A stretch of DNA of 64,000 nt from assembly GCA_965198315.1 (NCBI GenBank), contig OZ240616.1:391096-455095 (forward strand), in the 5' to 3' direction. A program made the position numbers and the translations under genes. The notes under the pieces were generated by a model. The model saw only the letters and a list, made by a program, of their open reading frames with translations, had not been told where the DNA came from and searched no databases. Shown here piece by piece: positions 13,138 through 39,402 of this stretch (within the stretch, counting starts at the first letter, position 1; each line of letters starts with the position of its first letter). The stretch is from Candidatus Aldehydirespiratoraceae bacterium. GTDB taxonomy: Bacteria > Actinomycetota > Acidimicrobiia > Acidimicrobiales > Aldehydirespiratoraceae.

Positions 13138-13718
13138 CCGACATTCCATCCTCGAATTTCATGTCCTCGCGCTACCCGATAGAAGTCATCCGCAGCGACC
13201 GCAGAGTCAAAACCGTCTCCGCCCGCATCGTTGAGGGGGTGATCCGAGTACGGATCCCCTCTTGGATGACTTCACGGGATGAAGCCGAGTATGTCAGCGA
13301 CATTGTTGACCGCATCGAGAGACAGCGACGCTCCCACGGAATCGACCTAGCAAGCCGCGCTCGGGTGCTGGCAGAAAAGTTCGATCTGCCACTACCGACT
13401 TCGATTCGCTGGTCCAAGACCCAACGACAGCGATGGGGTTCCTGCTCCCCCCACAGCGGTCACATCCGCATCTCCGACCGACTCGTGGATGTGCCTCCCT
13501 GGGTGTTGGATCATGTGATCGTGCATGAACTGGCGCACCTTGTGGTTCCCAACCACTCCCCGGCCTTCGACGCGTTGGAGCAGCGCAACCCTCTGACGGA
13601 ACGGGCTATTGGATACCTGATGGCCCTGAACGATCGAACTGACCCGGTTGCCACGCTCTCCCCCGTGGCTGATCTCCCGGCGCAGGTCGACACCAGCGGT
13701 TTACCTCAGGCCGGCTAG
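13134..13718 (+). CDS. YgjP-like (DUF45/M48-type) zinc metallopeptidase
   Basis: HELAHL zinc motif. The ATGA start/stop overlaps the preceding gene. The longer track ORF (12582-) is an Arg-rich out-of-frame shadow. Confidence 0.8.
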   Translation: MTDIPSSNFMSSRYPIEVIRSDRRVKTVSARIVEGVIRVRIPSWMTSRDEAEYVSDIVDRIERQRRSHGIDLASRARVLAEKFDLPLPTSIRWSKTQRQRWGSCSPHSGHIRISDRLVDVPPWVLDHVIVHELAHLVVPNHSPAFDALEQRNPLTERAIGYLMALNDRTDPVATLSPVADLPAQVDTSGLPQAG

Positions 13719-17607: not shown

Positions 17608-17727
17608 GAACTGAGCGCACCTGAGAGCCGAGTCACCTGACGATTCTTGCTTGGCGGGCGTCACAGGCTGTGTCGTAGGGGTCGTCTATGCTCCAAACAA
17701 TCCACGCTGGGATCGGAGGTGATCGAT

Positions 17728-19236: not shown

Positions 19237-19241
19237 TTCCG

Positions 19242-20183: not shown

Positions 20184-20226
20184 TCAAACTGCCATGTGGA
20201 GAAGCTGAATCTCCCATAGTCTCCGA

Positions 20227-25714: not shown

Positions 25715-26716
25715 GTGAACGCAGTGAACAAGAGCGGGAGACAACAGGCCACGGTCCGAAATTGGCGGGACCAGCCGATAGCCTGCGATGCGGTGAGTAC
25801 CGTCAAACGCGCCCGTCAGAAAGCCAACCGAGCCAGCCGCGTCGCCGCGGCGCAGGCAGCCGAAGCGAAAGCCAGAACCCGGCGGCAGACGATCCGCTGG
25901 GGTTCGGGGGTCGCCGTGATCGTGATCCTGATCGTCGGTATCGGATGGTTTCTGAACCGTGGCGATGACGACCCGTTCGACGGTTTTGACCCGGTGGTGA
26001 CGGACACCACGCAGCCCCCGACCGAACCCGAACCTGATCCGGTCGTCACTGAGGCCGTCAGTACGACATCGCCCACGGAGCCGGTGGAGATTTCGGAGCC
26101 GTCCAATCCGGATTGCCCCGCTCCCGACAAGAGCAGCCCTCGTACGCTCGACTTCGGTGGTCCGCAGCCGATGTGTATCAACCCCGTCCACAACTACCAA
26201 GCGGTGTTCGACACCTCCGAAGGCGAGATCGTCATCGACCTCGACACCGAGAACACCCCCAACACGGTCAACAATTTCGTGACCCTCTCCCGTTGGGGAT
26301 ACTACGACGGCACCACTCTGTTCCGAACCGATCCCAGCATCGACATCATTCAGGGCGGCTCGCCCCACACAGATTCAGCCAGCGATCCGGGACCCGGCTA
26401 CACGATCCCCGACGAGCCGACCTTCAATGACGAGGGTGGTTTCCTCACTGGGCCCTACCGGTATGTTCCGGGCCAGTTGGTGATGGCCCGAAGTGGTGGT
26501 CCTGATGCCTCCGGCGCCCAGTTCTTCTTCACGACCGGCCCCAACACCGCTCTGCTCGACGGCCAGGGTACCTACATCGTGTTCGGGCAGACCCACGAAG
26601 CCGGTCTCGGCGTGATGCAAGACATCATCGGCTTGCACCAACCCGACGACAGCGGGCTCGGAGGTCGGCCGTCTCGGACCGTCACTGTCAACTCGGTGAC
26701 GATTCAGGTGGGCTGA
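25715..26716 (+). CDS. membrane-anchored cyclophilin-type peptidyl-prolyl isomerase
   Basis: TM anchor and Pro/Thr/Glu linker, then NNFVTLSRWGYYDGTTLFR and MARSGGPDASGAQFFFT cyclophilin motifs. The start may be downstream of 25715. Confidence 0.85.
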   Translation: MNAVNKSGRQQATVRNWRDQPIACDAVSTVKRARQKANRASRVAAAQAAEAKARTRRQTIRWGSGVAVIVILIVGIGWFLNRGDDDPFDGFDPVVTDTTQPPTEPEPDPVVTEAVSTTSPTEPVEISEPSNPDCPAPDKSSPRTLDFGGPQPMCINPVHNYQAVFDTSEGEIVIDLDTENTPNTVNNFVTLSRWGYYDGTTLFRTDPSIDIIQGGSPHTDSASDPGPGYTIPDEPTFNDEGGFLTGPYRYVPGQLVMARSGGPDASGAQFFFTTGPNTALLDGQGTYIVFGQTHEAGLGVMQDIIGLHQPDDSGLGGRPSRTVTVNSVTIQVG

Positions 26717-27323
26717 TCGGCCACCGCACCCTCGCTTCCACGAACGGGCGGAACGGTGCCGACACGGTCGGCACTTCGAAGCGCTGCAGATCGGTGATCG
26801 TCAGTCCCAGTGCTCGGATCTCCGCCGGCAGGTCCCAGTCGAGGCGTAATCCGCCGACTGCGCGGCCAACACGCCCACCGAGCGCCAGCAGGCGACCGGT
26901 TCGACCGGCCCGTGCCACCGGTTCAAGGAAGAGCAGGCGACCTTCGTCGGCGAGTAGCTCCCTGAGGGTTCGAAGGAAACGATTCAGGTCGGCCACGAGG
27001 GGGGTACGGATCAGGCTGACGATCGTGTCGAAGGGGCCGTGGCCGAGTTCGCTCAGTTCCTCGGGTTCGGCATCGATTCTGGTAACGCCTTGAGGATCGT
27101 GTGCGGGGGTGCCGGCCCTGATGTCGCCCAGGCGATCGAGCATTGTGACCGAATCGACTTCGGTGGCGATCTGATAGCTGTCGAGATGGTCGGACCAACC
27201 GCCCAGGTCGAGGACTCTGCCGCTCGCCACTGAGGCCAGATTGCTCCGGCGTTTGCGCAGCGCGGGCGCCAACTCCATGGGCAACGGGTTCATCCAGGCA
27301 ACGAGAGGGGGGCGGTTCGCCAT
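26688..27323 (-). CDS. class I SAM-dependent methyltransferase (putative)
   Basis: VLDLGGWS glycine-rich motif-I-like segment and ~210 aa length. Moderate support. Confidence 0.55.
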   Translation of the reverse strand: MANRPPLVAWMNPLPMELAPALRKRRSNLASVASGRVLDLGGWSDHLDSYQIATEVDSVTMLDRLGDIRAGTPAHDPQGVTRIDAEPEELSELGHGPFDTIVSLIRTPLVADLNRFLRTLRELLADEGRLLFLEPVARAGRTGRLLALGGRVGRAVGGLRLDWDLPAEIRALGLTITDLQRFEVPTVSAPFRPFVEARVRWPISPPESSPS

Positions 27324-27374
27324 CCGGGCAACCTAGCGCGCCCTAGCCTTGTCCCATGCCTGTCGAACCTGCGC
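27251..27374. repeat. 124-bp direct repeat, copy 1 (left flank of the AbiE islet)
   Basis: Identical to 29489-29612 except one position (27361 t versus 29599 c). Covers the first 73 nt of the methyltransferase gene, the 32-nt divergent intergenic region and the first 19 nt of aat. Confidence 0.95.
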
Positions 27375-27435
27375 TGGACTGATGCATTCACTTCGGGCGA
27401 ACAGGTTCGTAGACCTGACCGGTACGGACAGCGAA

Positions 27436-28563
27436 TCAGAACTCGACGAGGTAGCGGGGGGTGAAGCTCTCGGACTCGATGCTGACTGCGCGGATGCGGT
27501 CGGCGCGGTAGCTGCGTATCTGTTCTCTATCGTTTACGACGAAGACCAGCAGCTTCCCTTCTTGCGAGTAGCGGAGGGAATAGGGCTCGACCGTGCGTAG
27601 CCCGATTCGGCCCTGCTTGGCGTGATAGTCGATGGTGACCTTGAGACGGTTCGCTCCAGCGAATCGTATGAGCTCGATCGGCGAGCCCTGTTGCCATGAG
27701 GTCATGTGCCGGGCTGGCCGCCAGCCAGTGACTGGCTCCGTCGGCCGGATCTCCGTCAACTGCGGCACGGGTCGGTCCCCGTCCAGCCAAGCGAACACAT
27801 CGTCGAGTTGGGACCAGAAGTCGTCAAAGCTCGGCAGGTGAGGCAGTTGGTGGCCGAGCATGTTCGACCACTCGGTCTCGATCTCGTCCCTGAACGGAGT
27901 AGAGCGGATCGTGGCAAGCGTCGGAGTGTCGATGCGTGCGTGGGCACACTTCGCCTCGAGGACCTGCACCACGTCGTCGGCGCGACCGATCAGGTCCGGA
28001 TGACGATGGGTGTGGACGACGTCGTAGAGGTCGCGGGGACGGCAGCGCTCAGCGAGTGCTCTGATCTTCTCTCCCAGGAGTTCTGGCAGCGAGTAGCAGA
28101 CCACACTGGTGAGGTGACTGGTGGCAGAGCTCGCTGGTGCGTCGCTGAACGGGTGTTGCACGGGTCGTGACTCCAAGCCTCGCACGATGGCTTCATCGGC
28201 CGTGAGGTCGAGCTTGACCTTGGGTGGCGTGGGCATGCCTAGCGGCCCGAGGCAGCCGACCCGTCCTTCGATCGTCGGTTTGCCTCGCTTGTTCTGGCGC
28301 TGTCGGAACGAGCCGTCGTCCACGATCAGCCGTAGCCCGCACCTGTCATCCAGCCATGCGGCGATCTCCGCGAACGTCTCTCCCAATCGTCCGACATCGA
28401 GATCGGATTCTGTGACAGTGAAGTCGAGGTCCTCAGAGAACCGGTAGGTCTCGAACCAGCACTTCCGAAGACATGTCCCGCCCTTGAACACCCAGGACCG
28501 CGTCTGCGGGTGCTCCGCGATGCCGGCAAGGAGCCAGCCAAGTACGTAGTCCTTCTCGACCAC
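27436..28563 (-). CDS. AbiEii/AbiGii-family nucleotidyltransferase toxin with C-terminal WYL-like domain
   Basis: MVEKDYVLGWLL...FKGGTCLRKC...YRFSEDLDF N-terminal NTase motifs. The C-terminal ~90 aa (ELIRFAGANRLKVTIDYHAKQGRIGLRTVEPYSLRYSQEGKLLVFVVNDREQIRSYRADRI) looks like a WYL domain. Confidence 0.85.
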   Translation of the reverse strand: MVEKDYVLGWLLAGIAEHPQTRSWVFKGGTCLRKCWFETYRFSEDLDFTVTESDLDVGRLGETFAEIAAWLDDRCGLRLIVDDGSFRQRQNKRGKPTIEGRVGCLGPLGMPTPPKVKLDLTADEAIVRGLESRPVQHPFSDAPASSATSHLTSVVCYSLPELLGEKIRALAERCRPRDLYDVVHTHRHPDLIGRADDVVQVLEAKCAHARIDTPTLATIRSTPFRDEIETEWSNMLGHQLPHLPSFDDFWSQLDDVFAWLDGDRPVPQLTEIRPTEPVTGWRPARHMTSWQQGSPIELIRFAGANRLKVTIDYHAKQGRIGLRTVEPYSLRYSQEGKLLVFVVNDREQIRSYRADRIRAVSIESESFTPRYLVEF

Positions 28564-28616
28564 ATGGTGAGCAAGTTGCTACTCACCTGCGAAGTTGGCG
28601 ATCTCTCGATTGGTGA

Positions 28617-29414
28617 TCACGCCGACACATCTGCGTTGATCCGCAGGCCCCACCGAGCCGACCGCGTGCCTCCCGAGGGCAGCGACGGGTCGAGCAGCGG
28701 AAACCCTGAGGTCAAAGGCCGAACAATCGCCCTAGTGTCGTGTCCCAGCACTTCCAGGAGATACCCGAGCCTCTTGATTGCCGCTCCGTTGTCCAGTCGT
28801 TCAAGGGCACCCACCAGATCCTCGAGCCTCCCAACCGAGAGCAGCGTGTCAAGGACCTCCATCGTGTGACGGATGCCGCCACCCAGTACTGGGTCCGACA
28901 GCATGTCGGCAACCGTGCGTTCCCGGCTAGACACTTTGACCTTCCGGTCACCCCGCCACTCCCCAACGAGTCCCCACTCGAAGCGGTCGATGTTGACATG
29001 ATGGACCAGATAGCTGGCACCAGCCAGCTTCTGATCAACTCGGCGCACCCGTTGTGCGGTGGAAACGACCGTAGAGCGAAAAACTTGGTCGGTGAGCGCC
29101 CAGTGATTCGCAGCCGACCACCCGGCGATGTAGCACGGATCCCACACCAAGTCCGCCAGATACCAGGGGTCCTCCTTCCAGGTCGCCGGATCCCGCGCGT
29201 CCACCGGAACTGCGATGTACAGACCCCGTCGGACACGCCTCAGCCACCCCCTCGATGCCCAAGCCGACAACCGCCGCGCAGCAGACTCGCGACTTACCCC
29301 CAACGCCGTGGCCGCAGCATCCACCGTGACTGTCCGCTGTCCCGCCCCGAACAACGTGGCAAGATCACGCCGACCCCGCGCTGACAATCCTCCCGGCTCG
29401 ATGCTCGGACTCAT
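28617..29414 (-). CDS. AbiEi-family antitoxin/transcriptional regulator
   Basis: N-terminal wHTH (VTVDAAATALGVSRESAARRLSAWASRGWLRRVRRGLY), 265 aa, located directly upstream of AbiEii. Confidence 0.8.
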   Translation of the reverse strand: MSPSIEPGGLSARGRRDLATLFGAGQRTVTVDAAATALGVSRESAARRLSAWASRGWLRRVRRGLYIAVPVDARDPATWKEDPWYLADLVWDPCYIAGWSAANHWALTDQVFRSTVVSTAQRVRRVDQKLAGASYLVHHVNIDRFEWGLVGEWRGDRKVKVSSRERTVADMLSDPVLGGGIRHTMEVLDTLLSVGRLEDLVGALERLDNGAAIKRLGYLLEVLGHDTRAIVRPLTSGFPLLDPSLPSGGTRSARWGLRINADVSA

Positions 29415-29488
29415 GCAGACATCCTAAGTCCAATACTTACGGCTTGAGTGGAATAACTGGCTTTGCGTTGTCATTTCGGGTCTGCTCA

Positions 29489-29612
29489 GTTTGCGCAGCG
29501 CGGGCGCCAACTCCATGGGCAACGGGTTCATCCAGGCAACGAGAGGGGGGCGGTTCGCCATCCGGGCAACCTAGCGCGCCCTAGCCTTGTCCCATGCCCG
29601 TCGAACCTGCGC
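29489..29612. repeat. 124-bp direct repeat, copy 2 (right flank of the AbiE islet)
   Basis: See copy 1. Contains a dead 73-nt methyltransferase 5' fragment and the live aat start. Confidence 0.95.
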
Positions 29613-30265
29613 CATGTTCGTGGAGCTTTCCGCCTGTCGAGAGCGCGGAGCCCTCTGGGTTGGTCGGGGTCGGTGCCGATCTGGAACCGGAAACGATCTT
29701 GGCTGCCTACAGGTCTGCGATGTTCCCGATGCCGATACAGGCTGACGGGTTGATCGGCTGGTGGTCGCCGGATCCACGAGGGGTTCTCGAACTCGGTTCA
29801 CTGCATGTGAGCCGTTCCCTGCGGCGCTCGGCTCGCCGATTCGAGATTCGCATCAACAGTTCGCTGCCTGCGGTTATTGATGCTTGTGCCAACTCAGGTC
29901 GGCCCCATGATTGGATCGATGCGCAGATCCGCGATGCCTATGTTCGGCTCGGCTCTCTGGGCTGGGTTCACAGCGTCGAGACCTGGCTGGACGGGGAATT
30001 GGTCGGTGGTATGTACGGCGTTGCTGTCGGTGGTTTGTTTGCAGGCGAGTCGATGTTTCACCGCGTCACGGATGCTTCCAAGGTTGCACTGGTGGCGCTC
30101 GTGGATCTCTTGGGTGACGGTCAGCGACGGCTGGTTGATGTGCAGTGGATGACGCCTCATCTCGCAACGCTCGGGGTTGTCGAGTGGCCTCGCACCCATT
30201 ATCTCGATGTCTTAGGTGAGCTGTTGGCGAGCCCTCTTCCAGAGCCGTTCCAGCATCCTGGTTAG
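29594..30265 (+). CDS. aat: leucyl/phenylalanyl-tRNA--protein transferase
   Basis: ILAAYRSAMFPM, WWSPDPRGVL and GGLFAGESMF motifs. Confidence 0.9.
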   Translation: MPVEPAPCSWSFPPVESAEPSGLVGVGADLEPETILAAYRSAMFPMPIQADGLIGWWSPDPRGVLELGSLHVSRSLRRSARRFEIRINSSLPAVIDACANSGRPHDWIDAQIRDAYVRLGSLGWVHSVETWLDGELVGGMYGVAVGGLFAGESMFHRVTDASKVALVALVDLLGDGQRRLVDVQWMTPHLATLGVVEWPRTHYLDVLGELLASPLPEPFQHPG

Positions 30266-30445
30266 CGCACACGCTGATTGACCGCGTCCAAGATGTCGAC
30301 AAACACGGTTAGGACATGCGAAAGCCCGGCCACTCACCGTCTGGAGAGGTACCGGGCTTCACTTCCAAGGACTAGTGCGGAGCGCGAGCCTTACCCGAAC
30401 TGTTGGCGAGCCCTCTTCCAGAGGCCTTCCAGTATCCTGGTTAGC
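30218..30445. repeat. 49-bp imperfect direct repeat pair duplicating the aat 3' end, enclosing a 130-bp insert
   Basis: 30218-30266 versus 30397-30445 show 4 mismatches. The insert contains the stem aagcccgg (30322-30329) / ccgggctt (30352-30359). Confidence 0.85.
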
Positions 30446-30446
30446 T

Positions 30447-30531
30447 GGAGGGATGGCAGAGCGGACGATTGCACTGGTCTTGAAAACCAGCGGGCTTCAC
30501 GGCCCCGGGGGTTCGAATCCCCCTCCCTCCG
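30447..30531 (+). tRNA. tRNA-Ser (anticodon TGA)
   Basis: Hand-folded. Acceptor ggaggga/tccctcc, anticodon stem ctggt/accag with loop cttgaaa, long variable arm, T arm ggggg-ttcgaat-ccccc. Confidence 0.85.
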
Positions 30532-30538
30532 CAATGTG

Positions 30539-31792
30539 ATGTGTCAAGACATAGGAAAGGTGTGAACCTGCGCGGGGCGGGGTTTTTTAGGGTTGGTTTT
30601 GGGGTTGGTAGTCGCGGTTGGGGTTGAGGGTTAGGTGTCGGAGGAGTTCGCCGGTTTGGGTTGCGATGACTCTGATGTCGAGATCGGCGACGAGGAGGGT
30701 TACGGGGGTGTGTTTGTGGGCTCTGCCGATGCCGATGTGGTGGAGTCGGCTGTTGTGGCGGAGTGTGACGGAGCCTGTTTTGTCGATGCGGTCGTGTCGG
30801 ACTCTGAAGTGGATGTCGGCACCGTTGTGTTCAGGACCGGTTTTGGGGAGACGCTGGTAGGCGGCGGCTGGGGTGGTGCGGCCGAGGCTGCGGTGGGGGC
30901 GGTTGTGGTTGTAATGGCGGGTGAATTCGTCGATGAGGCCTTGGAGCTGGTCGAGGCTGTGGGCAGCGGGTTGGGCGGTTAGCCATTTTTTGAGGGTTTG
31001 TTGGAAGCGTTCGACTTTGCCGCAGGTGGTTGGGTGGTTGGGTGTGGAGTTCTTCTGTTCGATGTCTAGGGCTACGAGGCGGGCCTCGAAGGCGTTTCTG
31101 CCTCCTTTGCCGCCCGAGAAGCGGGTGGTGTAGACCATGGCGTTGTCGGTGAGCGTGGACGCGGGAACGCCGTGGTCAGCACACGTTTGGTTGAAGGTGT
31201 CAACCACGATCGGGCCGGTGATACGCCGATGGACGGTGACCGACAGTGCGTAGCGGGAATGGTCGTCTAGCCAGGTGATGATCTCGACCTCGGCACCTGT
31301 GGCGAGCCGCCAGTGACAGAAGTCTGACTGCCACATCTGGTTGGGCAGATCGGCGGCGAAGCGGACATAGGACGACTTCGGGCGTTTCTTCGCGTTGGAC
31401 TCCACCAGACCCAGATCGACGAGGCGGCGCCGGACCGTCGAGGGCGACACGGTGATCTGGTGACGCTGTTGAAGGTGCCAGCAGACGGTGTGCGGGCCGG
31501 CGTCGAGGCCTCGGGAGGACAGCTCTGAGCGTAGGTTCACCACCAACTCGACTATCTCGTCACAGACCTTGGATGGTGAGCTACCGGGACGCCGCGACCG
31601 GTCTTGGAAAGCCGTGTCGCCCTCAGCACGCCAGCGGGCCACAAGCTTGCAGACCCAACCCTCAGACACCCCATAGAGCCTGGCCGTTTGGGCCTGGGTC
31701 CGACCCTCCAACACCACCGACAAGACAACCGATCGACGTTTCGACATGCCCCAACATCAGCCGACCAGACCCTTTCCTATGTCTTGACACAT
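30539..31792. mobile_element. IS481-family insertion sequence (1254 bp)
   Basis: Perfect 22-bp terminal inverted repeats: atgtgtcaagacataggaaagg at 30539-30560 and its reverse complement at 31771-31792. They enclose one transposase gene. Confidence 0.85.
30587..31747 (-). CDS. IS481-family transposase (DDE/rve integrase core)
   Basis: N-terminal HTH (RTQAQTARLYGVSEGWVCKLVARW), rve-core pattern (WQSDFCHW...DDHSRY...TDNAMVY) and C-terminal YNHNRPHRSLG. Confidence 0.9.
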   Translation of the reverse strand: MSKRRSVVLSVVLEGRTQAQTARLYGVSEGWVCKLVARWRAEGDTAFQDRSRRPGSSPSKVCDEIVELVVNLRSELSSRGLDAGPHTVCWHLQQRHQITVSPSTVRRRLVDLGLVESNAKKRPKSSYVRFAADLPNQMWQSDFCHWRLATGAEVEIITWLDDHSRYALSVTVHRRITGPIVVDTFNQTCADHGVPASTLTDNAMVYTTRFSGGKGGRNAFEARLVALDIEQKNSTPNHPTTCGKVERFQQTLKKWLTAQPAAHSLDQLQGLIDEFTRHYNHNRPHRSLGRTTPAAAYQRLPKTGPEHNGADIHFRVRHDRIDKTGSVTLRHNSRLHHIGIGRAHKHTPVTLLVADLDIRVIATQTGELLRHLTLNPNRDYQPQNQP

Positions 31793-32560
31793 ACCTTTCC
31801 TATGTCCTGAACCACAACACCTCCAGCTCCGCAAATGTGATGTGTCAAGACATGTGCTGAGCATCCCCCCTTTGGCCGGACACCTCGATTAGGAGGTAAG
31901 CCCCGAGAAGGCTACCCAACAACGTGACAGGGGTCTATATTGTCACGTCTATGGCTGGTTCGTGTCCAGGTCGTGATTCAAGTTCAATGGTTGGGTTGAG
32001 CCGTGTCTGGTTGAGCCTCGGGTGTGGATGTCGGCCAAGGGGAGTGTATGTTCCCACCAGGTGGCGCATTTAGACGTTTGGGAGCACAGCCCCCAACCGG
32101 AAGGCCTTCCGCAAGTGCGGCTCTCTTGAGCGTCGGAGGCGTCGGAGTCAATGGCTTTTTCAATGTCGGTCCCGGTCATTGCCTCCAGGATGGTGTAGTG
32201 GTCGATTTGGACGCCATGGAGGCTGGGGAGTCCCCCCTCTGTACCGGGGACCTCCTTCAGATTCGGTGTTCGCTCAACCCTGATTCTGGAGGCCCCCACC
32301 CCTGTCACCGAGGACTCAGTGCCTGCTTAAATCCGAAGAGCCGACTTACGACTTGTTGATGAGTGATATACGATTTGCTTATGAAGTTCAGCATGTTGAT
32401 GAAGTTCAGTAACCGCGCTCATAGGGCGGTGCACGACGCCGCCAACTCTGACACCGGCCGTGCCGCGCCGGAGACCCCTTTACCTTGTTGGTGGCCCTGG
32501 TGTGGCAATGTCGGGGTTGGTTGCTCGCTGCGGTGGGTAGGACTGTAGTCCCCTGTCATT

Positions 32561-34606
32561 TTGATGGCTTGGGGGGTGTTGTCGCCTGCTGTGGTCGGGT
32601 GTCTGGGACCTCTTACAGGGACATGCTTTAGGGCTGAATGTAAAGTGGTTGAGGCGCAGGCTCCGGGAGCATCCGAGTTAGGAACAATCCCAGAGCTAAG
32701 GAGCGTCTGTCTGTGGTTCGTGGACGACGCGGGGTTTGAGGAGGGGCCCGAGTCTTTGTGCAGCGAGTTCACTGATCCGGTGAGGGTGCCGGAGGGGCCT
32801 GCTGTGGAGGCGGTGCGGCCCCAGTTGGCCGCGGGCGGCTATCACTCGTGTCTGGTGACGTTGAGCGGCAATATCCGTTGCGCGGGCGACAACCTCCACG
32901 GCCAGCGCAACACGCCCTTGCCTGATGAGGGCCATTGGTATGTGAGCGTGGCTGCTGGGGGGTTCCATACTTGTGGTCTCCAGGACGACGGGGTGGTCAA
33001 GTGCTGGGGCGACGACACCTACGGCCAGAGCACCGTCCCGCAGGACGATCTTGTGTTCGCGTCGGTGTCGGCGGGGCCGTGGCACACGTGCGCGTTGACC
33101 GAGCCCGAGCCCGATGGGGCCGGGGGGTTGTTGAAGTGCTGGGGCAACGACTACGACGGCCAGCAGAGGACGTCGAAGGTGCGGCCCGATGACCTGTTCA
33201 GGTTGGTGTCGGCGGGCGGGTGGACGAATTTCCGGCCTGCGCACTGGAACTGGAACGGGACGGTGTACCGGGGCTTCCACGCGAGCCGCACCTGCGTGCT
33301 CGGCACCGACGGCTTCATCGTCTGCGAGGGAAACGACATGGGCAACCACACCTTGGAGCGCGTACTCGATCCCGACACCGGATCTTGCGTAAAAGATCCC
33401 GTCACCAAGGAGTGTCGCACGACCGGCGACGTCGGCCGTCACGGGCCGCTGGGACTGAGCGACGAAGGCACGCTGCATCACACCGCGGTGTCGGCGGGCG
33501 GCGGCCATGCCTGCGCGGTGATCTCTGACGGCACCATGGACTGCTTCGGCAGAAACCAAGAAGACCAGCTCGTCCCAATACGCCCGAACGGCGATCCGGG
33601 TCCGCTGTTCGACCCCGACAATCCCGACAATCCCGACAATCCCGACAACAAAGGCTGCCCCGCAACCGACGACGGCTCCGACGATACCGGCAACAACGGC
33701 CGCCCCGTCGCCGACCCCGACTACCGGTGGATCGAGGTCGCCGCGGGCGGCAGCCACACCTGCGCCACCATGCAACAGATCGGCGGGACCAGCACCAGGC
33801 TCAAGTGCTGGGGCTACGAGCAGTTCTTCAACAGCGAAGGCCACGGCGGCCACCCCACCAGCGCCGACGCCGGAATCAACCCCCGCAACCCCGTCGCCGG
33901 CACCAGCCACTACTGCTGGCTCCACGGCCCCGACAACAACACCCAAGTCAGCTGCCGCGGCGACGACGCCTTCAACGCAGCCCGCTGGAACAACCGAAAA
34001 ATCAGCTCCTTCGACCCGATGATACCCGCCGGCGTGGAGCCCGACGTCGACCAATTCCGCCTGCTGTTCGTCACCTCCGCAGTACGCGACGCCACCAGCG
34101 ACGCCATATCTGACTACAGAAACTTCGTCAAGGAACTCGCCGCCAACGGGCACCCCGCCATCCGCCCATTCAGCTCCAACTTCCGCGTCGTAGCCACTCT
34201 CTCGATGGGTTCGGCCTTCGGAAACAGCGACACCGCCTTCTCAAGCGACGCGGGCCATCCGATCTACTGGTTCGGCGGCGACAGAGTCGCAGGCGACCAC
34301 CGCGACTTCTGGGACGCAAACTGGGACTCCACCGATCGGCCCAGAGACGAATTCGGCCGCCTTGTGACCGAACAAGACCTCGAAGTGTTCACCGGTGCCG
34401 GCATACGAGGAAGCCCCCTCCAGATCGAAGACGTAAACTCAGCCTTGGGCAATGACAACGTCGGGATCGGATACCTGAACCACGCCGAAATCAGGCCCTT
34501 TTACGCCGACGACGCTGTCCTGGCGAACACCGAAGAAAGACGCTTCTACGCGATATCGCCGCTCCTCAAAATAACAGCCGACGGCCAGTACTACAAAGCC
34601 GACTAG
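32561..34606 (+). CDS. RCC1-repeat (beta-propeller) protein with unassigned C-terminal domain
   Basis: Repeated blades AAGGYHSCLV...CAGDNLHGQ, AAGGFHTCGL...CWGDDTYGQ, SAGPWHTCAL...CWGNDYDGQ, SAGGGHACAV...CFGRNQEDQ and AAGGSHTCAT...CWGY. PDNPDNPDNPDN linker. The C-terminal ~190 aa (FRLLFVTSAVRDATS...) is unassigned. Start uncertain. Confidence 0.75.
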   Translation: MMAWGVLSPAVVGCLGPLTGTCFRAECKVVEAQAPGASELGTIPELRSVCLWFVDDAGFEEGPESLCSEFTDPVRVPEGPAVEAVRPQLAAGGYHSCLVTLSGNIRCAGDNLHGQRNTPLPDEGHWYVSVAAGGFHTCGLQDDGVVKCWGDDTYGQSTVPQDDLVFASVSAGPWHTCALTEPEPDGAGGLLKCWGNDYDGQQRTSKVRPDDLFRLVSAGGWTNFRPAHWNWNGTVYRGFHASRTCVLGTDGFIVCEGNDMGNHTLERVLDPDTGSCVKDPVTKECRTTGDVGRHGPLGLSDEGTLHHTAVSAGGGHACAVISDGTMDCFGRNQEDQLVPIRPNGDPGPLFDPDNPDNPDNPDNKGCPATDDGSDDTGNNGRPVADPDYRWIEVAAGGSHTCATMQQIGGTSTRLKCWGYEQFFNSEGHGGHPTSADAGINPRNPVAGTSHYCWLHGPDNNTQVSCRGDDAFNAARWNNRKISSFDPMIPAGVEPDVDQFRLLFVTSAVRDATSDAISDYRNFVKELAANGHPAIRPFSSNFRVVATLSMGSAFGNSDTAFSSDAGHPIYWFGGDRVAGDHRDFWDANWDSTDRPRDEFGRLVTEQDLEVFTGAGIRGSPLQIEDVNSALGNDNVGIGYLNHAEIRPFYADDAVLANTEERRFYAISPLLKITADGQYYKAD

Positions 34607-34619
34607 AACCGGAGTCCAG

Positions 34620-34850
34620 ATCGGCCGACGCGGTGGGCGTATTGGGGACCTTGCGATACTTGGGTCGTCCCGAGACGCCACGCAGCCCTGCCTGTCTCAT
34701 CAGCATCTGGACGGTCTGGGGGCACACTGCTGTGCCCCGGCCCAAGACGAGCTCGGCACGGACCCGAATGGCTCCATAGGTCTGCCGGGAGTCGGCACCG
34801 ATCTCGCCGATGATCTCGCTCAGCGAGGCGTATCGGATCGACCGCGCTGT
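34620..34850 (-). pseudogene. IS3-family transposase (OrfB N-terminal/HTH_21) fragment
   Basis: SRQTYGAIRVRAELVLGRGTAVCPQTVQMLMRQAGLRGVSGRPKYRK matches the conserved IS3 OrfB N-terminal pattern (G.YG..RI.AEL......V....V.RLMR.AGL.G). No DDE core follows. Confidence 0.6.
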
Positions 34851-34890
34851 CGGCGGACGACCCAGCTGGCCGCAGTAGCCCGAGCACGGG

Positions 34891-36591
34891 ATGACCCGGC
34901 ACGGAGCTGGCCGTCGAGCTTTTGACACAAATCGGGTCGTTGGTCGGTTAGCCTGCGACTCGACCGGCACTCGGAGGTTCAAATTGGGTTCGCTGAATTC
35001 TCTAGGCCTGGAGCGCAGTTGCGGCTCTTGGCGTCTTGCGACTCGACATTTTCTCTTGGTGGCCTTGTTGGTAATTGCGGCTTGCGCTTCTGGAGACGAG
35101 GGCACTCCAGACCTGGGTTCGAACAGTTCTGTCGAAAACGACGAAGCCGCTCAGTCGGGCACGACCGCATCCGAGAAAGTCCAGGGATCAACAGACGCCG
35201 ACGATCGGATCGAACCGTCCGAGCGCGATTGTTCACCTCATATCCCCGACGATCTTCGCTTGTCCCAACCCTCTCCAACGGCTGCCAGCATCGAGATATC
35301 ACAGGCCACCTATGACTGCGCCCACGAGGTCGGTCTTGCGTTCGCCACCGACCCTGCCGCGATCTCCACGCTTCAGTCTCAGGGGATTCAGGGGCCGCTG
35401 CTATTCGTCGATCGTCAATTTGATGTTCCTCTGATGGACGAGCTCGGGCGTCTCGCTCCAGAGAAGATCATTGCTGTAGGAATCGACGACCGGCACCTTG
35501 ACGACGAACTGGCCGACTTCGTCTCCGAATCGGTAACTGTCGATCAGCAGGCAGAACTATTGCCTCAAGGTGGGTCTTATGACCGCGTCTGGCTCGTCGA
35601 CAACTACACCGAGGCTGTGCCGCTGGCGGTTCTCGGCAACCAAATCGGTGTCAGGGTGATCACTGTGCCTGGAGACCTCCGAGCCGCATCTGTCGAGGAA
35701 CGGGAGATGATCGCCGCTGCTTCTGAGGTGGAACTGCTTTCGGACTACGGCGAGGACGCAGCCTGGCAATTGGATGTAATCCGCCGTGGCCCTGAACTAC
35801 CCGGGGGTGGTTTCCTCCTGTTCGATCCAAACCAACCCCGCCGCATGGTTGCCATGTACGGCCATCCACAGACATCAGGGCTCGGAGTGTTGGGAGAACA
35901 GAGTCCCGATAGGAGTATCGAACGCCTCCGCTCCATCGCTCAGGGCTACGACGCTGACGGTTTCGCCGTATTACCCACCTTCGAGATCATCGCCACCGTT
36001 GCCGCGGGCAGCGCCGGCTACGACGGGAACTTCTCCAATGAGACCGCTTTGGACATACTCAGGCCCCTAATCGAGACAGCGGCCGCTAACGACTTCTATG
36101 TGGTCTTGGATCTTCAGCCGGGACTATCCGACTATCTCTCGCAGGCAAAGATCTACGAGGAGTTCCTGCGCCTCCCTCATGTGGGGCTGGCATTGGATCC
36201 CGAGTGGAGGCTGAAGCCCGGCCAACGTCATCTGCAGCAGATCGGCACGGTCGACGCGGGTGAGATCAACCAGGTTGTCGAGTGGCTGGCCGGGATCGTC
36301 CGTGAAGAAGCACTTCCCCAGAAGCTGCTGGTCCTCCACCAGTTCAAGTTCTCCATGATCACGAACCGTCATCTGGTCGAGACTCCCGCCGAGCTGGCGG
36401 TTCTGGTTCATATGGACGGTCAGGGTCCGCTACCGACCAAGTACAGCTCCTGGAATGCCCTCACCCGCCAGCCCGACGCAGACCAGTTCTATTGGGGTTG
36501 GAAGAACTTCTACGACGAGGACTCCCCCACCGCCACCGCTGCTCAAGTGTTGGCCCTGACCCCCACCCCCCTGTTCGTCTCGTACCAGTAA
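34891..36591 (+). CDS. hypothetical secreted/lipoprotein (LLVIAAC lipobox-like)
   Basis: Long ORF with good codon structure and a hydrophobic segment HFLLVALLVIAACASG. The start codon is uncertain, since ATG 34891 lies ~50 aa upstream of the signal-like segment. Family not recognised. Confidence 0.6.
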   Translation: MTRHGAGRRAFDTNRVVGRLACDSTGTRRFKLGSLNSLGLERSCGSWRLATRHFLLVALLVIAACASGDEGTPDLGSNSSVENDEAAQSGTTASEKVQGSTDADDRIEPSERDCSPHIPDDLRLSQPSPTAASIEISQATYDCAHEVGLAFATDPAAISTLQSQGIQGPLLFVDRQFDVPLMDELGRLAPEKIIAVGIDDRHLDDELADFVSESVTVDQQAELLPQGGSYDRVWLVDNYTEAVPLAVLGNQIGVRVITVPGDLRAASVEEREMIAAASEVELLSDYGEDAAWQLDVIRRGPELPGGGFLLFDPNQPRRMVAMYGHPQTSGLGVLGEQSPDRSIERLRSIAQGYDADGFAVLPTFEIIATVAAGSAGYDGNFSNETALDILRPLIETAAANDFYVVLDLQPGLSDYLSQAKIYEEFLRLPHVGLALDPEWRLKPGQRHLQQIGTVDAGEINQVVEWLAGIVREEALPQKLLVLHQFKFSMITNRHLVETPAELAVLVHMDGQGPLPTKYSSWNALTRQPDADQFYWGWKNFYDEDSPTATAAQVLALTPTPLFVSYQ

Positions 36592-36602
36592 CCCGGCCTG
36601 AG
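36528..36602. repeat. 75-bp direct repeat, copy 1 (left flank of the TA islet)
   Basis: Matches 38678-38752 with 3 mismatches. Covers the last ~64 nt of the 34891-36591 gene plus 11 nt after its stop. Confidence 0.9.
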
Positions 36603-36685
36603 CGGACTGTACATTCACTTCATTCTCGCCAGCCATCGAAGGAATACATCAGAGCATCATAAATTTGAGATGCTACGATGTCTGA

Positions 36686-36943
36686 ATGCGAACAACGTTG
36701 ACTCTCGATGATGACTTGGCCGCGGCCCTCAGAGAACACGCCCAACGGGTGGGAGTGCCGTTCAAGCATGTCGTCAACGACACCCTGCGGCGGGGCCTGT
36801 CCCCGGTGCTCGCAAAGACGGAGTCCGATTACAAGATCAGGCCCCACGACAGCGGTTTCAGACCCGGCGTCGATCCGTTGCGGCTGAATCAGCTCAACGA
36901 CTCGCTTGCGGCCGACGACTTCGCTGGTTCGCCGCCACAGTGA
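36686..36943 (+). CDS. type II antitoxin, VapB-like
   Basis: MRTTLTLDDDLAAALREHA N-terminus typical of antitoxins paired with PIN toxins. 4-nt overlap with the PIN gene. Confidence 0.75.
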   Translation: MRTTLTLDDDLAAALREHAQRVGVPFKHVVNDTLRRGLSPVLAKTESDYKIRPHDSGFRPGVDPLRLNQLNDSLAADDFAGSPPQ

Positions 36944-37365
36944 TTGTCCCGGACCTGAACCTGCTCGTCTACGCCCACAGCACCGGCGCGCCACTGCACG
37001 ATCCGGCCCGGCAATGGTGGGAGGATCTGGTGAACGGAACCGAACGAGTCGGGGTTCCGTGGCTGGTGGCGGCAGGTTTCGTGCGACTGCTCACCCACCC
37101 CAGGGTCATGAACACCCCAGCGGATCCGGCGCACGCCGTTGACCTCATGGCCCAATGGTTCAACTCACCCACCGTTTCACCGCTGAACCCGGGCCCCCAG
37201 CACATCGCGCTCTTGCGCAACATGCTGGCTGCCGCCGGCACAGGAGGAGACCTCGTCACCGACGCCCACATCGCCGCGTTGGCCGTTGAGCACCAAGCAG
37301 AGGTCCACTCCAACGACAGCGACTTCACACGCTTCCCCGGGCTGAGCTGGCGCAACCCGCTCTGA
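36940..37365 (+). CDS. vapC: PIN-domain ribonuclease toxin VapC
   Basis: MIVPDLNLLVYA (first acidic residue), TDAHIAALA and SNDSDF motifs. Confidence 0.85.
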   Translation: MIVPDLNLLVYAHSTGAPLHDPARQWWEDLVNGTERVGVPWLVAAGFVRLLTHPRVMNTPADPAHAVDLMAQWFNSPTVSPLNPGPQHIALLRNMLAAAGTGGDLVTDAHIAALAVEHQAEVHSNDSDFTRFPGLSWRNPL

Positions 37366-37416
37366 GTTCACCCAACGTCAAGCGAATTCTTCGGCAAAAA
37401 CAGTGTTGTTGGTCGG

Positions 37417-37686
37417 TTAGAGGTAGGAGTCGAGGGCGTCTCGGATGACTTGGCTCTCGGTGGTCTTGTCGGAAGCTGCCCGCTGCTTGATCCGGCTCTT
37501 GTAGCTGTGGGGAGCGCGGAATGTGTACACCTCGGCCCGTGTCTCTCCGATTCTCGGTGAGCGGCGGCGCGTCCGCTTGATCTTGGCGAGCTCGTCGGGT
37601 GTGAACTCGCGCCCCTCGAAGTCCGTGGCGATGGCCTCTGTCTCATCGCCGGTCAAGGTCTTGTCGGTCTTAGTCTCGTTGCTCAT
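37417..37686 (-). CDS. putative antitoxin (RHH-like C-terminus)
   Basis: ATG 37686 overlaps the upstream gene stop (ATGA). The C-terminal YKSRIKQRAASDKTTESQVIRDALDSYL resembles CopG/RHH antitoxins. Confidence 0.55.
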   Translation of the reverse strand: MSNETKTDKTLTGDETEAIATDFEGREFTPDELAKIKRTRRRSPRIGETRAEVYTFRAPHSYKSRIKQRAASDKTTESQVIRDALDSYL

Positions 37687-37934
37687 GGTCGCTCCCCGGT
37701 GAGGTAGGTGCGGAATACTGGGCGCAGTGGCATCGCGTGAACGACCAAGTCCTGTTCTGCTGCCTGGAGGTACAGGAGTTCGAGTAGGTTGCCCGCACGG
37801 TCGGGACCGATGCACAGGCTTTTGGTCGGTTCATGTTCGCTGTCGATGTCATAGAAGCCCATGGCGTGTTGCCATGCATGCCGGATGTCCTCGTCGGTCA
37901 ACCCGTGCCGGTAGGCCGACTCAAATATCTGCAC
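37683..37934 (-). CDS. small toxin-like protein of a conserved actinobacterial TA family
   Basis: 83 aa. The pattern AYRHGLTDEDIRHA...IGPDRAGNLLELLYL...VVHAMPLRP recurs in small actinobacterial proteins paired with RHH partners. Family name not recalled with certainty. Confidence 0.5.
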   Translation of the reverse strand: MQIFESAYRHGLTDEDIRHAWQHAMGFYDIDSEHEPTKSLCIGPDRAGNLLELLYLQAAEQDLVVHAMPLRPVFRTYLTGERP

Positions 37935-38025
37935 CGCTTAAGCGTAACACGTTTAAGGGTGGCTTGAGTCCGCGGACCTCGTCTGGGAGGACGCTGTTGG
38001 TGTTCTGTCTTGTTTTCTGTACAGT

Positions 38026-38304
38026 TTGAGTATGACCGCCAACATCACCACCAGTTCCAGCAGCTACACAGCGCCATTGACTGATGCCCGTAGTCGCCTG
38101 AGCGAGATCGTCGACGAGGTCGAGTCCACCGGGGCCGAATTCATCATCACCAAGCACGGCCGCCCAGCAGCTGTGATCGTGGGGCACGAAGACTACGAGT
38201 CGCTGATTGAGACGCTCAACATCCTTGCGGACAGCGACACCGTGGCCGCTATCGCCGAAGCTGAGGCTGACCTCGCTGCCGGCGATCTCGTTCCCCTCGA
38301 TTGA
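38026..38304 (+). CDS. Phd/YefM-family antitoxin
   Basis: LTDARSRLSEIVDEVESTGAEFIITKHGRPAAVIVGHEDYESLIETL is a classic Phd/YefM fold signature. Confidence 0.85.
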   Translation: MSMTANITTSSSSYTAPLTDARSRLSEIVDEVESTGAEFIITKHGRPAAVIVGHEDYESLIETLNILADSDTVAAIAEAEADLAAGDLVPLD

Positions 38305-38311
38305 TCAAATC

Positions 38312-38554
38312 GTGCCCAAACTGACCGCCAGAGCTAAAAGAGACCTGGATGGGTTACCCCCGGCGCTCTCGCAGAAAGCGCGTGAGCTCATCAGACGACT
38401 CGACGACGAGCCTGGACTCGGCAAAAAACTCAAGGGCCAACTACGGGACAAGCGCTCCGCGCGCCTAGGACGCTCTCATCGCATCATCTACACAGCGCGA
38501 CACGGTGACATTGTCGTGCTCACGATCGGTGCCAGGAAGGACATCTACCGTTGA
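38312..38554 (+). CDS. RelE/ParE-family toxin
   Basis: GTG 38312. A..DLDGLP....A..L...L...P..G..L.G.L.....ARLG.SHRIIY......I.VL.IG.R.D.Y is the RelE/ParE pattern. Confidence 0.75.
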   Translation: MPKLTARAKRDLDGLPPALSQKARELIRRLDDEPGLGKKLKGQLRDKRSARLGRSHRIIYTARHGDIVVLTIGARKDIYR

Positions 38555-38677
38555 TGGGATTCGAACTACCATCGAATAAGAAGGAGCGCTAGCTATGCCC
38601 GGGCTGTGACGTCCGCCAGCGCACCGTCGGCCCATGGCACTTGAGTAGACCGATCAGAGGACGAGGATCGCCGTCAG

Positions 38678-38752
38678 CACCGGCACCGCTGCTCAAGTGT
38701 TGGCCCTGACCCCCAACCCGCTGTTCGTCTCGTACCAGTAACCCGGCCTGAG
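38678..38752. repeat. 75-bp direct repeat, copy 2 (right flank of the TA islet)
   Basis: See copy 1. This is a dead duplicate of the upstream gene's 3' end. Confidence 0.9.
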
Positions 38753-38754
38753 TC

Positions 38755-39402
38755 TCAGGCTCTATGAGTTGCCAGGTAGGCCAGTACTTCTTGTTCGGAG
38801 ACTACGTCTGCGTATTTTGCGTCGAGGTCGAACAGGTTGGACTCGTGCACCTGCGGGTCTCGGTCTCCGCAGGCGTCACGCACCACGATCGGCACAAACC
38901 CGTGCTGGCAGGCATCCAGCGCCGTGGCTCTAACGCAACCACTGGTGGAAACACCGGTGTGGATCAGCGTGTCGACACCCATCGAGGTGAGCGTCGAAGC
39001 CAGCGACGTTCCGAAAAATCCTGAGGCGTACTGCTTCACGACCACCACTTCCCCAGCGGTGGGTTCGAGTCCGGCGCCGTACTCGCCGAGCGGGTTACCC
39101 CTCACGAAACACTCGAGGGCACCGACTTTGCGGAAGAATATGCCGCCGTCGGCTCCACCGGGCTGGAACTCCACTCTGGTGTGCAGCACCGGGATCTGAG
39201 CGGTTCGGGCAGCGTTCAACACCCGCACACACGAAGCGCGGGCGTCCTCCACCCCGGCGTAGAGCGGCGACGCCTCATCCAGGTAGGCCCGACAGAAGTC
39301 GATGACGACGAGGGCGGGCCGCTTGCCGAACCCCAGCCGGTTGTTGAACCCCGCACGGCGGTAATCGTCTAGCAACCCGTTGTCGGTCACTTCCTCGCTC
39401 AT
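38755..39402 (-). CDS. isochorismatase-family cysteine hydrolase (N-carbamoylsarcosine-amidase-like)
   Basis: ALVVIDF, HTRVEF and TGVSTSGCVRATALDA (catalytic Cys) motifs. Confidence 0.85.
   Translation of the reverse strand: MSEEVTDNGLLDDYRRAGFNNRLGFGKRPALVVIDFCRAYLDEASPLYAGVEDARASCVRVLNAARTAQIPVLHTRVEFQPGGADGGIFFRKVGALECFVRGNPLGEYGAGLEPTAGEVVVVKQYASGFFGTSLASTLTSMGVDTLIHTGVSTSGCVRATALDACQHGFVPIVVRDACGDRDPQVHESNLFDLDAKYADVVSEQEVLAYLATHRA

Follow-up and report, generated by a model that had tools for sequence, protein, structure and literature searches.

Two islets of about 2.1 kb entered the analysed chromosome as insertions that duplicated their target, by 124 nt in islet 1 and by 75 nt in islet 2. 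Sequence alignments identify the left end common to both islets as a relic of the methyltransferase (M) gene of a XamI-type restriction-modification (RM) unit, and islet 2 is circularly permuted around this relic. Coordinates refer to the window, i.e. the whole 64-kb stretch that was analysed.

27251-27374: left copy of T1, the 124-nt target duplication of islet 1; first 73 nt of a methyltransferase-like gene (26688-27323, reverse strand) plus 51 nt upstream
27375-29488: islet 1, the AbiEi/AbiEii cassette, 2114 nt
27436-28620, reverse strand: AbiEii toxin gene with a C-terminal WYL domain (Pfam, PADLOC)
28617-29414, reverse strand: AbiEi antitoxin/regulator gene (Pfam, PADLOC)
29489-29612: right copy of T1, abutting aat (29614-30265)
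36528-36602: left copy of T2, the 75-nt target duplication of islet 2; last 64 nt of a 566-aa gene (34891-36591) plus 11 nt
36603-38677: islet 2, 2075 nt, toxin-antitoxin cargo
36686-36943: VapB (Pfam RHH_1)
36940-37365: VapC (Pfam PIN)
within 37368-37934, reverse strand: two small ORFs
38026-38304: Phd (Pfam PhdYeFM)
ending at 38554: ParE/RelE-like gene (Pfam ParE_toxin)
38678-38752: right copy of T2, abutting an isochorismatase gene (38755-39402, reverse strand)

A direct-repeat search yielded identities of 99% between the copies of T1 and 96% between those of T2, in agreement with the long flanking repeats reported in the preliminary description of this region, which had also suggested a search for empty sites. 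T1 and T2 are unrelated in sequence; one target is a gene 5' end, the other the 3' end of a different gene. The relatives used for comparison are represented by loci labelled L001, L174, L180-L183, L186-L189 and others, and those free of the islets are 84-96% identical. Site 1 is empty, with T1 in single copy, in six relatives (L180-L183, L187 and L188), and the same holds for site 2 and T2 in L181 and L182. These empty, single-copy sites identify both islets as true insertions. Islet 1 occupies the same site in L174 and L186, and islet 2 does so in L001. The repeat copies of islet 1 share 99-100% identity both in L186 and in the window. At some loci the repeat copies diverge by 4-18%, which fits old duplications and repeats carried in by the element alike. 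The homology of the right T2 copy to the 566-aa gene extends about 15 nt past the repeat. A perfect palindrome (GCCTGAG-T-CTCAGGC) is centred on the insertion point at site 2, and in L188 an RM unit sits in this site, a few bases from the islet 2 junction.

The cargo of the two islets is unrelated, as had been noted before. In islet 1, an AbiEi regulator is followed by an AbiEii nucleotidyltransferase, the composition of an AbiE system (type IV toxin-antitoxin/abortive infection). Compared to L174, AbiEii is interrupted (W14 to stop) and the open frame restarts at a GTG at position 28563; this premature stop at codon 14 makes toxin activity doubtful. Islet 2 features two type II toxin-antitoxin pairs according to Pfam, each with an antitoxin followed by a PIN-domain or ParE-fold toxin, while PADLOC gave no match for these pairs. 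In both L180 and L188, XamI-type RM units are found linked to the islet 2 cargo. When all ORFs of the islets were scanned against Pfam, no recombinase, integrase or mobility domain was detected in either islet, nor was an integrase relic found in them, and a repeat search of both islets found no inverted repeats at their ends. Outside the islets, the only such genes of the window are an IS481-family transposase gene and a DUF222-HNH gene. An autonomous, recombinase-bearing relative, which the preliminary description had recommended looking for, was not found by our searches, which were weak.

The termini read TGGACTGATG.../...GTCTGCTCA(G) in islet 1 and CGGACTGTAC.../...GCCGTCAG in islet 2. 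The following features are located at or close to these ends.

27376-27394, forward strand: left-end motif of islet 1, GGACTGATGCATTCACTTC, inside a 51-nt piece (27375-27425) outside the AbiE module
29443-29452, forward strand: right motif of islet 1, CTTGAGTGGA, within the AbiE upstream region
36599-36643, forward strand: relic of an N6-adenine DNA methyltransferase (M) gene in islet 2, GLSGLYIHFILASHR, which includes the left motif
36604-36621, forward strand: left-end motif of islet 2
38640-38649: right motif of islet 2, CTTGAGTAGA, within the 73-nt right-terminal piece (38606-38677)
38670-38677, forward strand: last 8 nt of islet 2, identical to bases of the M gene that lie 7 nt upstream of the relic

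The pattern GGACTG-N2-3-CATTCACTTC was found twice in the window, at the previously reported positions, against 0 matches expected from 100 dinucleotide shuffles. In both islets the motif begins one base past the left repeat copy, on the same strand and at the same repeat offset, with 17 of 19 columns identical. Since the islets also share 18 other exact 10-mers by chance, the signal of the left motif lies in its position. The similarity extends 7 nt into the native target ends (CCTGCGC/T.. versus CCTGAG/C..). The motif is invariant in the orthologous islet 1 copies of L174 and L186; searches, which were weak, yielded no further instance.

The proposed right motif, CTTGAGTRGA, is indeed present in both islets (two matches, 0.17 expected; one of 100 shuffles reaches two). 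Its role as a shared end did not withstand comparison with the relatives: at the same site in the orthologous islet 1 copies the sequence varies (CCTGAGCGGA in L174, TCTGAGCGGA in L186), it is not conserved in other AbiE modules, and in islet 2 it belongs to the 73-nt terminal piece, which is missing from the matching right end in L183. We judge the resemblance to be due to chance. Both islets end in TCAG; in islet 1 these bases are part of the AbiE upstream region, which runs on past TCAG in L189 and L175.

Comparison of the 45-nt relic of islet 2 with the interior of the M gene of L188, 27 codons after NPPY, showed 41 of 45 nt to be identical, and at the protein level the identity was 93% over 15 aa (tblastn, E = 4e-5). 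The first 4 nt of the relic (TGAG) overlap the end of T2 and thus constitute a microhomology. The last 8 nt of the islet match M-gene bases just upstream of the relic, so that islet 2 is circularly permuted around it. Local alignment of the joined ends with the L188 M gene gave 45 identical columns out of 52, with one 7-nt gap and a score of 64. The 8-nt match was spotted after the fact, and its chance probability was estimated at roughly 3e-4. T2 ends in 8 nt (GGCCTGAG) that are similar to the M bases replaced (GGGTTGAG), and the end of T1 (CCTGCGC) resembles that of T2 plus one base (CCTGAGC). Patchy similarity to the target just upstream of T was observed at the right ends (GACGAGGA in islet 2, TGCTC in islet 1). 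Islet 1 retains 19 nt of the relic. Aligned with M genes by itself, its motif scored no better than shuffled sequence; the link of islet 1 to the M gene is made solely through the 17/19 match to islet 2, to which it is closer than to either available M gene. As a methyltransferase coding fragment, the left motif may have been retained passively or copied as a short patch from a template, instead of being a recognition site. Neither a circular form nor a plasmid relative nor a contiguous junction was found in the searches made.

Additional insertions were observed in the window and in the relatives. Those in the window, together with the IS element, are as follows.

17661-20235: third insertion, a PstI/BsuBI-type RM unit (M 17647-19236, R 19242-20183; Pfam, PADLOC)
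30211-30266 and 30390-30445: two 56-nt copies (88%) of the aat 3' end, flanking a 123-nt remnant
30533-31853: IS481 element, outside both islets

The RM unit has a target repeat of only about 12-15 nt and is missing from L180-L183, L186 and L188. The end of the 123-nt remnant is similar to the right end of islet 2 (..GCGGAGCGCGAGC), and the segment 30211-30445 has the appearance of an islet that decayed at the aat/tRNA-Ser hot spot. At this hot spot, L183 harbours a 4.8-kb island between 76-nt repeats as well as a tyrosine integrase beside tRNA-Ser; in L189, an integrase fragment lies beside AbiE. L174 features a second pair of islets of about 2 kb with unrelated cargo, common ends of 75 nt and about 110 nt and the same left junction, and with duplications of 81 and 283 nt at a single target position. 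One of the pair encodes a DUF222-HNH nuclease, and the shared ends are unrelated to the left motif of the window. In L001, a 7-nt target repeat is common to the IS elements of the ISL3 and DUF772/DDE_Tnp_1 types.

Insertion with long target duplication has been described for RM units without mobility genes, flanked by repeats of 46-423 bp and with no known mechanism (Nobusato et al. 2000 Gene 259:99; Furuta, Abe and Kobayashi 2010, PMC2853133). Together with IS1549 and IS1634 (PMC2266710), these units contradict the earlier statement that the combination matches no described element class. As described there, RM units of this kind are small and selfish, lack mobility genes and lie between direct repeats that are tens to hundreds of bp long; a relative lacking the unit has just one copy of the repeat, whose length varies from case to case and which often covers a gene end. 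The islets of this study likewise have repeats longer than 30 bp, single-copy in relatives that lack the unit and retain conserved flanks, carry no mobility gene and are smaller than 20 kb. They differ in cargo: in place of R and M genes, AbiE and VapBC/Phd-ParE are found along with an M relic of just 15 codons. The islets hold toxin-antitoxin/abortive-infection cargo with no working RM, only the 45-nt M relic, and reside in an uncultured acidimicrobial (Acidimicrobiia) host. Neither these points nor the common end of the islets, the permutation around the relic and the junction microhomology are mentioned in the portion of PMC2853133 consulted. The intact RM unit of the window departs from that pattern by its short repeat. 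With a shared end that is a leftover piece of an M gene, the islets point to this known, mechanistically unexplained type of insertion and not clearly to a new mobile element.

Taken together, we tentatively favour, as quite possible, the explanation that the islets are addiction/defence cassettes captured via long-target-duplication insertion, in which extrachromosomal DNA was opened in the M relic and joined by host repair or replication. The circular or concatemeric intermediate and the repair-based joining are parts that we infer. A small extrachromosomal DNA, circular or concatemeric, would have held the cargo and the methyltransferase relic; opened inside the relic, it would have been captured by host repair or replication with no dedicated recombinase. 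One junction would have been made where the end of T and the relic share a microhomology of 4-7 nt. The second end would have rejoined the target at a point 75-280 nt upstream, by a template switch back or by staggered breaks, which would have duplicated T and converted X-T-Y to X-T-cassette-T-Y, with T being 124 and 75 nt. This layout leaves both neighbour genes intact and makes scarless loss via recombination of the repeats possible. The 19-nt relic of islet 1 may reflect descent from an ancestor like islet 2, or a short templated patch copied at the similar CCTGNGC.

Microhomology-mediated template switching and break-induced replication (FoSTeS/MMBIR) are described mainly in eukaryotes, and we know of no demonstration of such a route for bacterial defence cassettes. 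The islets would resemble its products in the templated insertion between target duplications, the junction microhomology and the short patches copied from nearby. The two insertions, at different targets, start within one base of each other on the relic. Unguided repair does not predict such a coincidence; under repair-based capture, a shared start point would be expected only with a templated patch or common descent.

Somewhat doubtful is the proposal of the preliminary description that the islets form a non-autonomous mobile-element family, whose ends (left YGGACTG-N2-3-CATTCACTTC, right ..TCAG) would be cut by an enzyme encoded elsewhere, with staggered nicks giving duplications of 75-280 bp. 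The insertions, their long duplications and the lack of a recombinase accord with it, as do the start of the motif at the same repeat offset in two different targets, the similar size and TCAG end of both islets, and the permutation of islet 2, expected of a circle with abutted ends. The L174 pair, with its common ends and junction, unrelated cargo, differing duplications and DUF222-HNH gene, also fits, and variable duplications of 8-514 bp have a precedent in IS1549 and IS1634 (PMC2266710). However, the motif is known from two instances within 10 kb in one genome lineage and is methyltransferase coding sequence, the right motif is attributed to chance, and the TCAG of islet 1 belongs to the AbiE upstream region. 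The islets lack terminal inverted repeats, searches of the window and of about 150 kb of the relatives' loci revealed neither a partner nor a candidate enzyme, and the L174 ends, unrelated to the motif, could have arisen by tandem duplication and cargo replacement. In a variant that we consider unlikely, ..TCAG/YGGACTG-N2-3-CATTCACTTC.. would be a joined-end site: recombinase-less cassettes would circularise and be reinserted by a trans-acting enzyme that cuts the strands 75-280 nt apart, for which a DUF222-HNH nuclease (REP13E12-type) such as that of the L174 islet is a candidate.

It is distinctly improbable that the motif is irrelevant to mobility and that two independent illegitimate recombinations broke the M relic almost at the same position. 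Chance explains many of the short matches that the islets share, and similar DNA recurs among M genes because a conserved protein motif is encoded by the patch. Against this, islet 1 is closer to islet 2 than to the M genes, and a coincidence of starts within 1 nt was estimated at well below 1%.

Integrase-dependent elements of the pSAM2/SLP1 type have long identical flanks that restore the end of the target gene, and they accrete in tandem at hot spots such as tRNA-Ser. Segments of att identity in actinobacterial integrative elements measure 40-110 bp. The islets share the long flanks restoring a gene end and the accretion at a tRNA-Ser-type hot spot, and could be remnants of such cis-mobilisable elements, with the repeats as attL/attR and the target gene end carried in by the element. 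The repeat copies that are just 82-96% alike at several loci, the homology beyond the right T2 copy, the integrase in L183 and the integrase fragment in L189 are compatible with this origin. It is nevertheless very unlikely, as neither islet has an integrase gene or relic, the left end is common to unrelated repeats and targets that are ordinary gene ends, one and the same junction has repeats of different length (81 versus 283 nt in L174), and the two repeat copies of islet 1 match at 99-100% in both the window and L186.

Hardly probable at all is mobilisation of the cassettes, as mobile insertion cassettes, by an IS1634/IS1549-type DDE transposase acting in trans. This is the sole transposase family documented for long variable duplications, with one actinobacterial member: duplications of 8-514 bp and no mechanistic model are reported for IS1549 (Mycobacterium smegmatis) and IS1634 (Mycoplasma mycoides) of the IS1634 family (PMC2266710). 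The duplications in the window (124 and 75 nt) and in L174 (81 and 283 nt) are similarly long and variable. However, these IS elements are autonomous, encoding a DDE transposase and having terminal inverted repeats at their ends, whereas the islets have neither and their ends do not fit the consensus C-----YT. Within the 64-kb window (of a 4.15-Mb genome) and the relatives' loci, we saw no transposase of this type; the IS types found there were IS481, ISL3 and DUF772/DDE_Tnp_1. An integron gene cassette was rejected, as the repeats copy neighbouring chromosomal genes and not attC, no integrase was found, and Rfam gave tRNA-related matches only.

The islets bear on how small defence and addiction modules move when they have no mobility genes of their own. 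The type of insertion that has been on record for RM units for 25 years is here extended to toxin-antitoxin/abortive-infection cassettes and to an uncultured actinobacterial lineage, with several occupied and empty alleles at hand for the islet sites. Three mechanistic clues lead to testable models: one junction is fixed while the other varies, the fixed one shows microhomology, and islet 2 is circularly permuted around the methyltransferase relic. The joined-end reading, if true, would provide an enzymatic mechanism for long-target-duplication insertion, unexplained since 2000. The intact neighbour genes and the scarless loss would account for a rapid turnover of defence islets.

Relatives with and without the two islets provided evidence of insertion. 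We compared the syntenic loci of relatives, which are 80-96% identical to the window and amount to about 150 kb of DNA in total. The names that homologs bear assign the lineage to the Acidimicrobiia (Ca. Poriferisodalis / Acidimicrobiales). Six of them (L180-L183, L187 and L188) lack the AbiE cassette (islet 1); there, a methyltransferase-like gene adjoins aat and the 124-nt sequence is single-copy, and the same site is occupied by islet 1 in L174 and L186. For the VapBC/Phd-ParE cassette (islet 2), empty sites were found in L181 and L182, where a homolog of the 566-aa gene adjoins the isochorismatase gene and the 75-nt sequence is single-copy; L001 carries islet 2 at this position. Since some relatives have a single-copy target T without an islet and others have the islet at the same site, an arrangement X-T-Y became X-T-islet-T-Y, and each islet is an insertion that duplicated a long target sequence. 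This confirms the proposal of the preliminary description that long duplications flank unrelated cargo.

Insertions in the window (forward-strand coordinates)
27251-27374 and 29489-29612: direct repeat of islet 1 (T1), 124 nt, 99% identity
27375-29488: islet 1, AbiEi and AbiEii genes, AbiEii with a WYL domain
36528-36602 and 38678-38752: direct repeat of islet 2 (T2), 75 nt, 96% identity
36603-38677: islet 2, VapB-VapC, two small minus-strand ORFs, and Phd with a ParE/RelE-like toxin gene
17661-20235: third insertion, PstI/BsuBI-type RM unit (M 17647-19236, R 19242-20183), absent from six relatives

T1 takes in the start of one gene together with the sequence upstream of it, T2 the end of another, and the genes on either side were left intact by both insertions. 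The insertion point at site 2 is the centre of a perfect 7+1+7 palindrome, GCCTGAG-T-CTCAGGC (window 36589-36610 and 38739-38765; also in the empty L181 and L182), formed by the 13 nt that separate the convergent 566-aa and isochorismatase genes.

Neither islet contains a recombinase domain, and the rest of the window yielded only a DUF222-HNH gene (54340-55503) and the transposase gene of an IS481-family element (30587-31747). The latter lies in an insertion sequence with 22-nt perfect inverted repeats that directly follows tRNA-Ser(TGA) (window 30447-31853); a second copy of a 34-nt repeat that takes in the tRNA-Ser 3' end lies at 31820-31853. RM, Bil, M78-peptidase and integrase genes occupy the tRNA-Ser spot in relatives. 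The DUF222-HNH gene (REP13E12-like, minus strand; region 53788-55540) adjoins an array of 46-nt tandem repeats (53788-54247). As to the cargo itself, codon 14 of the AbiEii gene (27436-28620, minus strand) is a premature stop (TGG in L174, TAG here; 28579-28581); the open frame resumes at GTG 28563, giving 375 aa instead of the 394 aa of homologs, so that the toxin may be inactive or shortened at its N-terminus.

A shared left-end sequence just after the left repeat had been proposed, and it holds. The pattern GGACTG-N(1-4)-CATTCACTTC matches the window only at 27376-27394 and 36604-36621 and is not frequent by chance (no match in 100 shuffles). Both copies, of the form GGACTG-N2-3-CATTCACTTC, have the same orientation, start one base past the left repeat and are identical in 17 of 19 columns. 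As 18 exact 10-mers are otherwise common to the islets by chance, the signal of the left motif is its position. The proposed right-end motif did not withstand comparison. CTTGAGTRGA occurs twice in the window (0.17 expected; two matches in 1 of 100 shuffles), but orthologous copies of islet 1 have CCTGAGCGGA (L174) or TCTGAGCGGA (L186) in its place with the left motif unaltered. It is not conserved in other AbiE modules, and in islet 2 it lies inside a 73-nt piece that the related right end of L183 lacks.

By inspection, the islet ends show no dyad symmetry, recombinase core or terminal inverted repeats; ATGCAT and TGTACA, the variable spacers, are the only 6-nt palindromes there. Comparison of the ends with the sites of several restriction enzymes, type IIS and other (BpuEI CTTGAG, BsrBI GAGCGG, DdeI CTNAG, PstI CTGCAG), gave no consistent cut position; CTGCAG is present 19 times, with 21 expected. 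Pattern scans of sequence collections were overrun by chance matches or met collections poor in this lineage. In genome contigs the 16-nt left motif had at least 120 matches, spread over all phyla and due to chance or coding sequence, with no flanking repeat among the matches listed; its 52 matches in viral contigs were all by chance, and neither scan counts as a negative. The contiguous joined ends, TCAGNGGACTGN{2,3}CATTCACTTC, gave two low-GC chance matches in JGI metagenomes, which hold few close relatives. PLSDB plasmids contained nothing related to islet 2 and, for islet 1, distant AbiEii genes only. An Rfam search of window 26-40 kb returned tRNA-Ser-related matches only.

The left motif has a counterpart in a coding sequence. 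Window 36599-36643 is identical at 41 of 45 positions to the interior of an intact N6-adenine methyltransferase (M) gene in L188, which has Pfam Eco57I and M_Eco57I_C domains and adjoins a RE_XamI gene; the match starts 27 codons past NPPY. In a protein alignment, GLSGLYIHFILASHR pairs with GLSGLYVHFILASHR (E = 4e-5). Together, the DNA and protein matches identify the left motif, on sequence similarity, as a piece of methyltransferase coding sequence. The final 8 nt of islet 2 (GCCGTCAG) equal M-gene bases 7 nt upstream of the fragment, and the joined right and left ends align to the gene with 45 of 52 columns identical and one 7-nt gap (score 64). Judged by this alignment, islet 2 is circularly permuted relative to the relic. 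The final 8 nt of T2 (GGCCTGAG) are similar to the bases of the gene that are 'missing' (GGGTTGAG), which constitutes microhomology at the left junction.

Islet 1 holds 19 nt of the relic within a 51-nt piece outside the AbiE module. Their similarity to islet 2 exceeds that to either M gene, and alone they have no significant similarity to M genes. The T1 end, CCTGCGC, resembles the T2 end plus one base, CCTGAGC. The upstream flank of AbiE in L189 and L175 was considered as a contiguous M-gene relic and rejected, with alignment scores in the range of shuffled sequences.

The VapBC and Phd-ParE genes of islet 2 recur in L180 and L188, linked there to XamI-type RM units; in L188 the unit follows a 563-aa gene, a few bases from the same junction as islet 2. 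L180 (reverse complement, 10441-14640) also has an islet-2-like cassette (VapB, truncated VapC, Phd-ParE; 85-88% identical) directly 3' of tRNA-Ser, with an inverted XamI-type RM unit in its middle and with neither a long flanking repeat nor the left motif.

Further insertions occur in the window and in relatives. The PstI/BsuBI-type RM unit has a flanking repeat of only about 12-15 nt (GCTTGGCGGGCG); in the most distant relative, L187, this position holds the unit with a deletion of its R gene. An apparent fourth insertion, decayed, is a 123-nt remnant flanked on either side by a 56-nt copy of the aat 3' end, and the same aat/tRNA-Ser hot spot in L183 contains a 4.8-kb island between 76-nt repeats. 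L174 features two additional islets of about 2 kb; the window has the empty site of both. Their cargo is unrelated, an AAA_15 ATPase gene in one and a DUF222-HNH gene (an 84%-identical copy of that in the window) in the other. One junction is fixed, both left joints lying at window 26787-26789, and the other is variable, with duplications of 283 and 81 nt. The two share a 75-nt left end and a right end of about 110 nt, which do not occur in the window and are unrelated to its motif. They stand in tandem (reverse complement, 955-5273); the shared right end has the palindrome GGACTGAGTCC, and in one islet an additional 253 nt, with 74% similarity to part of L186, separate the conserved right end from the repeat.

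In other contexts (L175, L176, L189) the AbiE module stands alone, without motif or matching repeat. In L176 (1-13218), three defence islets (S8 peptidase and AAA ATPase; AbiE; nSTAND3-like ATPase and S8 peptidase) follow one another in tandem, set apart by a 129-aa gene that is present, together with the region upstream of it, in four diverged copies (75-88%). In L189 (reverse complement, 1057-1407) the module, 88.7% identical to islet 1, adjoins an apparent C-terminal fragment of a tyrosine integrase gene, and its homology ends exactly at the right end of islet 1 (..TCAG).

We tentatively favour, at somewhat less than an even chance, capture of relic-bearing DNA by host repair or replication, a reading that extends to the 19 nt of islet 1. 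A small circular or concatemeric DNA would have borne cargo and relic, opened within the relic and then been captured, the first joint forming at microhomology and the second 75-280 nt upstream in the target, duplicating T. The 19 nt could have been inherited from an islet-2-like ancestor or copied as a short templated patch where the target ends are similar.

The preliminary description instead envisaged a non-autonomous family with functional ends, moved in trans. Its insertions, unrelated cargo and lack of a recombinase stand, and this view accounts more directly for the common start point and for the ends that the L174 islets share; it is nevertheless rather unlikely, as there are two instances only, no candidate enzyme in the window or the relatives' loci and no inverted repeats, the right motif fails and the left 'end' matches M-gene coding sequence. 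Pure coincidence appears improbable, and integrase-mediated integration, for which defining features are lacking, more so. Least probable is an IS1634-type transposase, for which defining features are likewise lacking. IS1549 and IS1634 generate target duplications of 8-514 bp (PMC2266710) and, unlike the islets, are autonomous insertion sequences with inverted repeats.

The preliminary description could not match the combination to a described class, but its structure fits 'insertion with long target duplication', described for RM units with 46-423-bp repeats that are single-copy in the empty genome and with no mobility gene (PMC2853133). That study gives the mechanism as not known and offers restriction-enzyme double-strand breaks as the authors' guess. 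This is the closest description for the islets, which share the structural features of such RM-unit insertions and, unlike them, have no RM cargo, only the relic of an M gene remaining.
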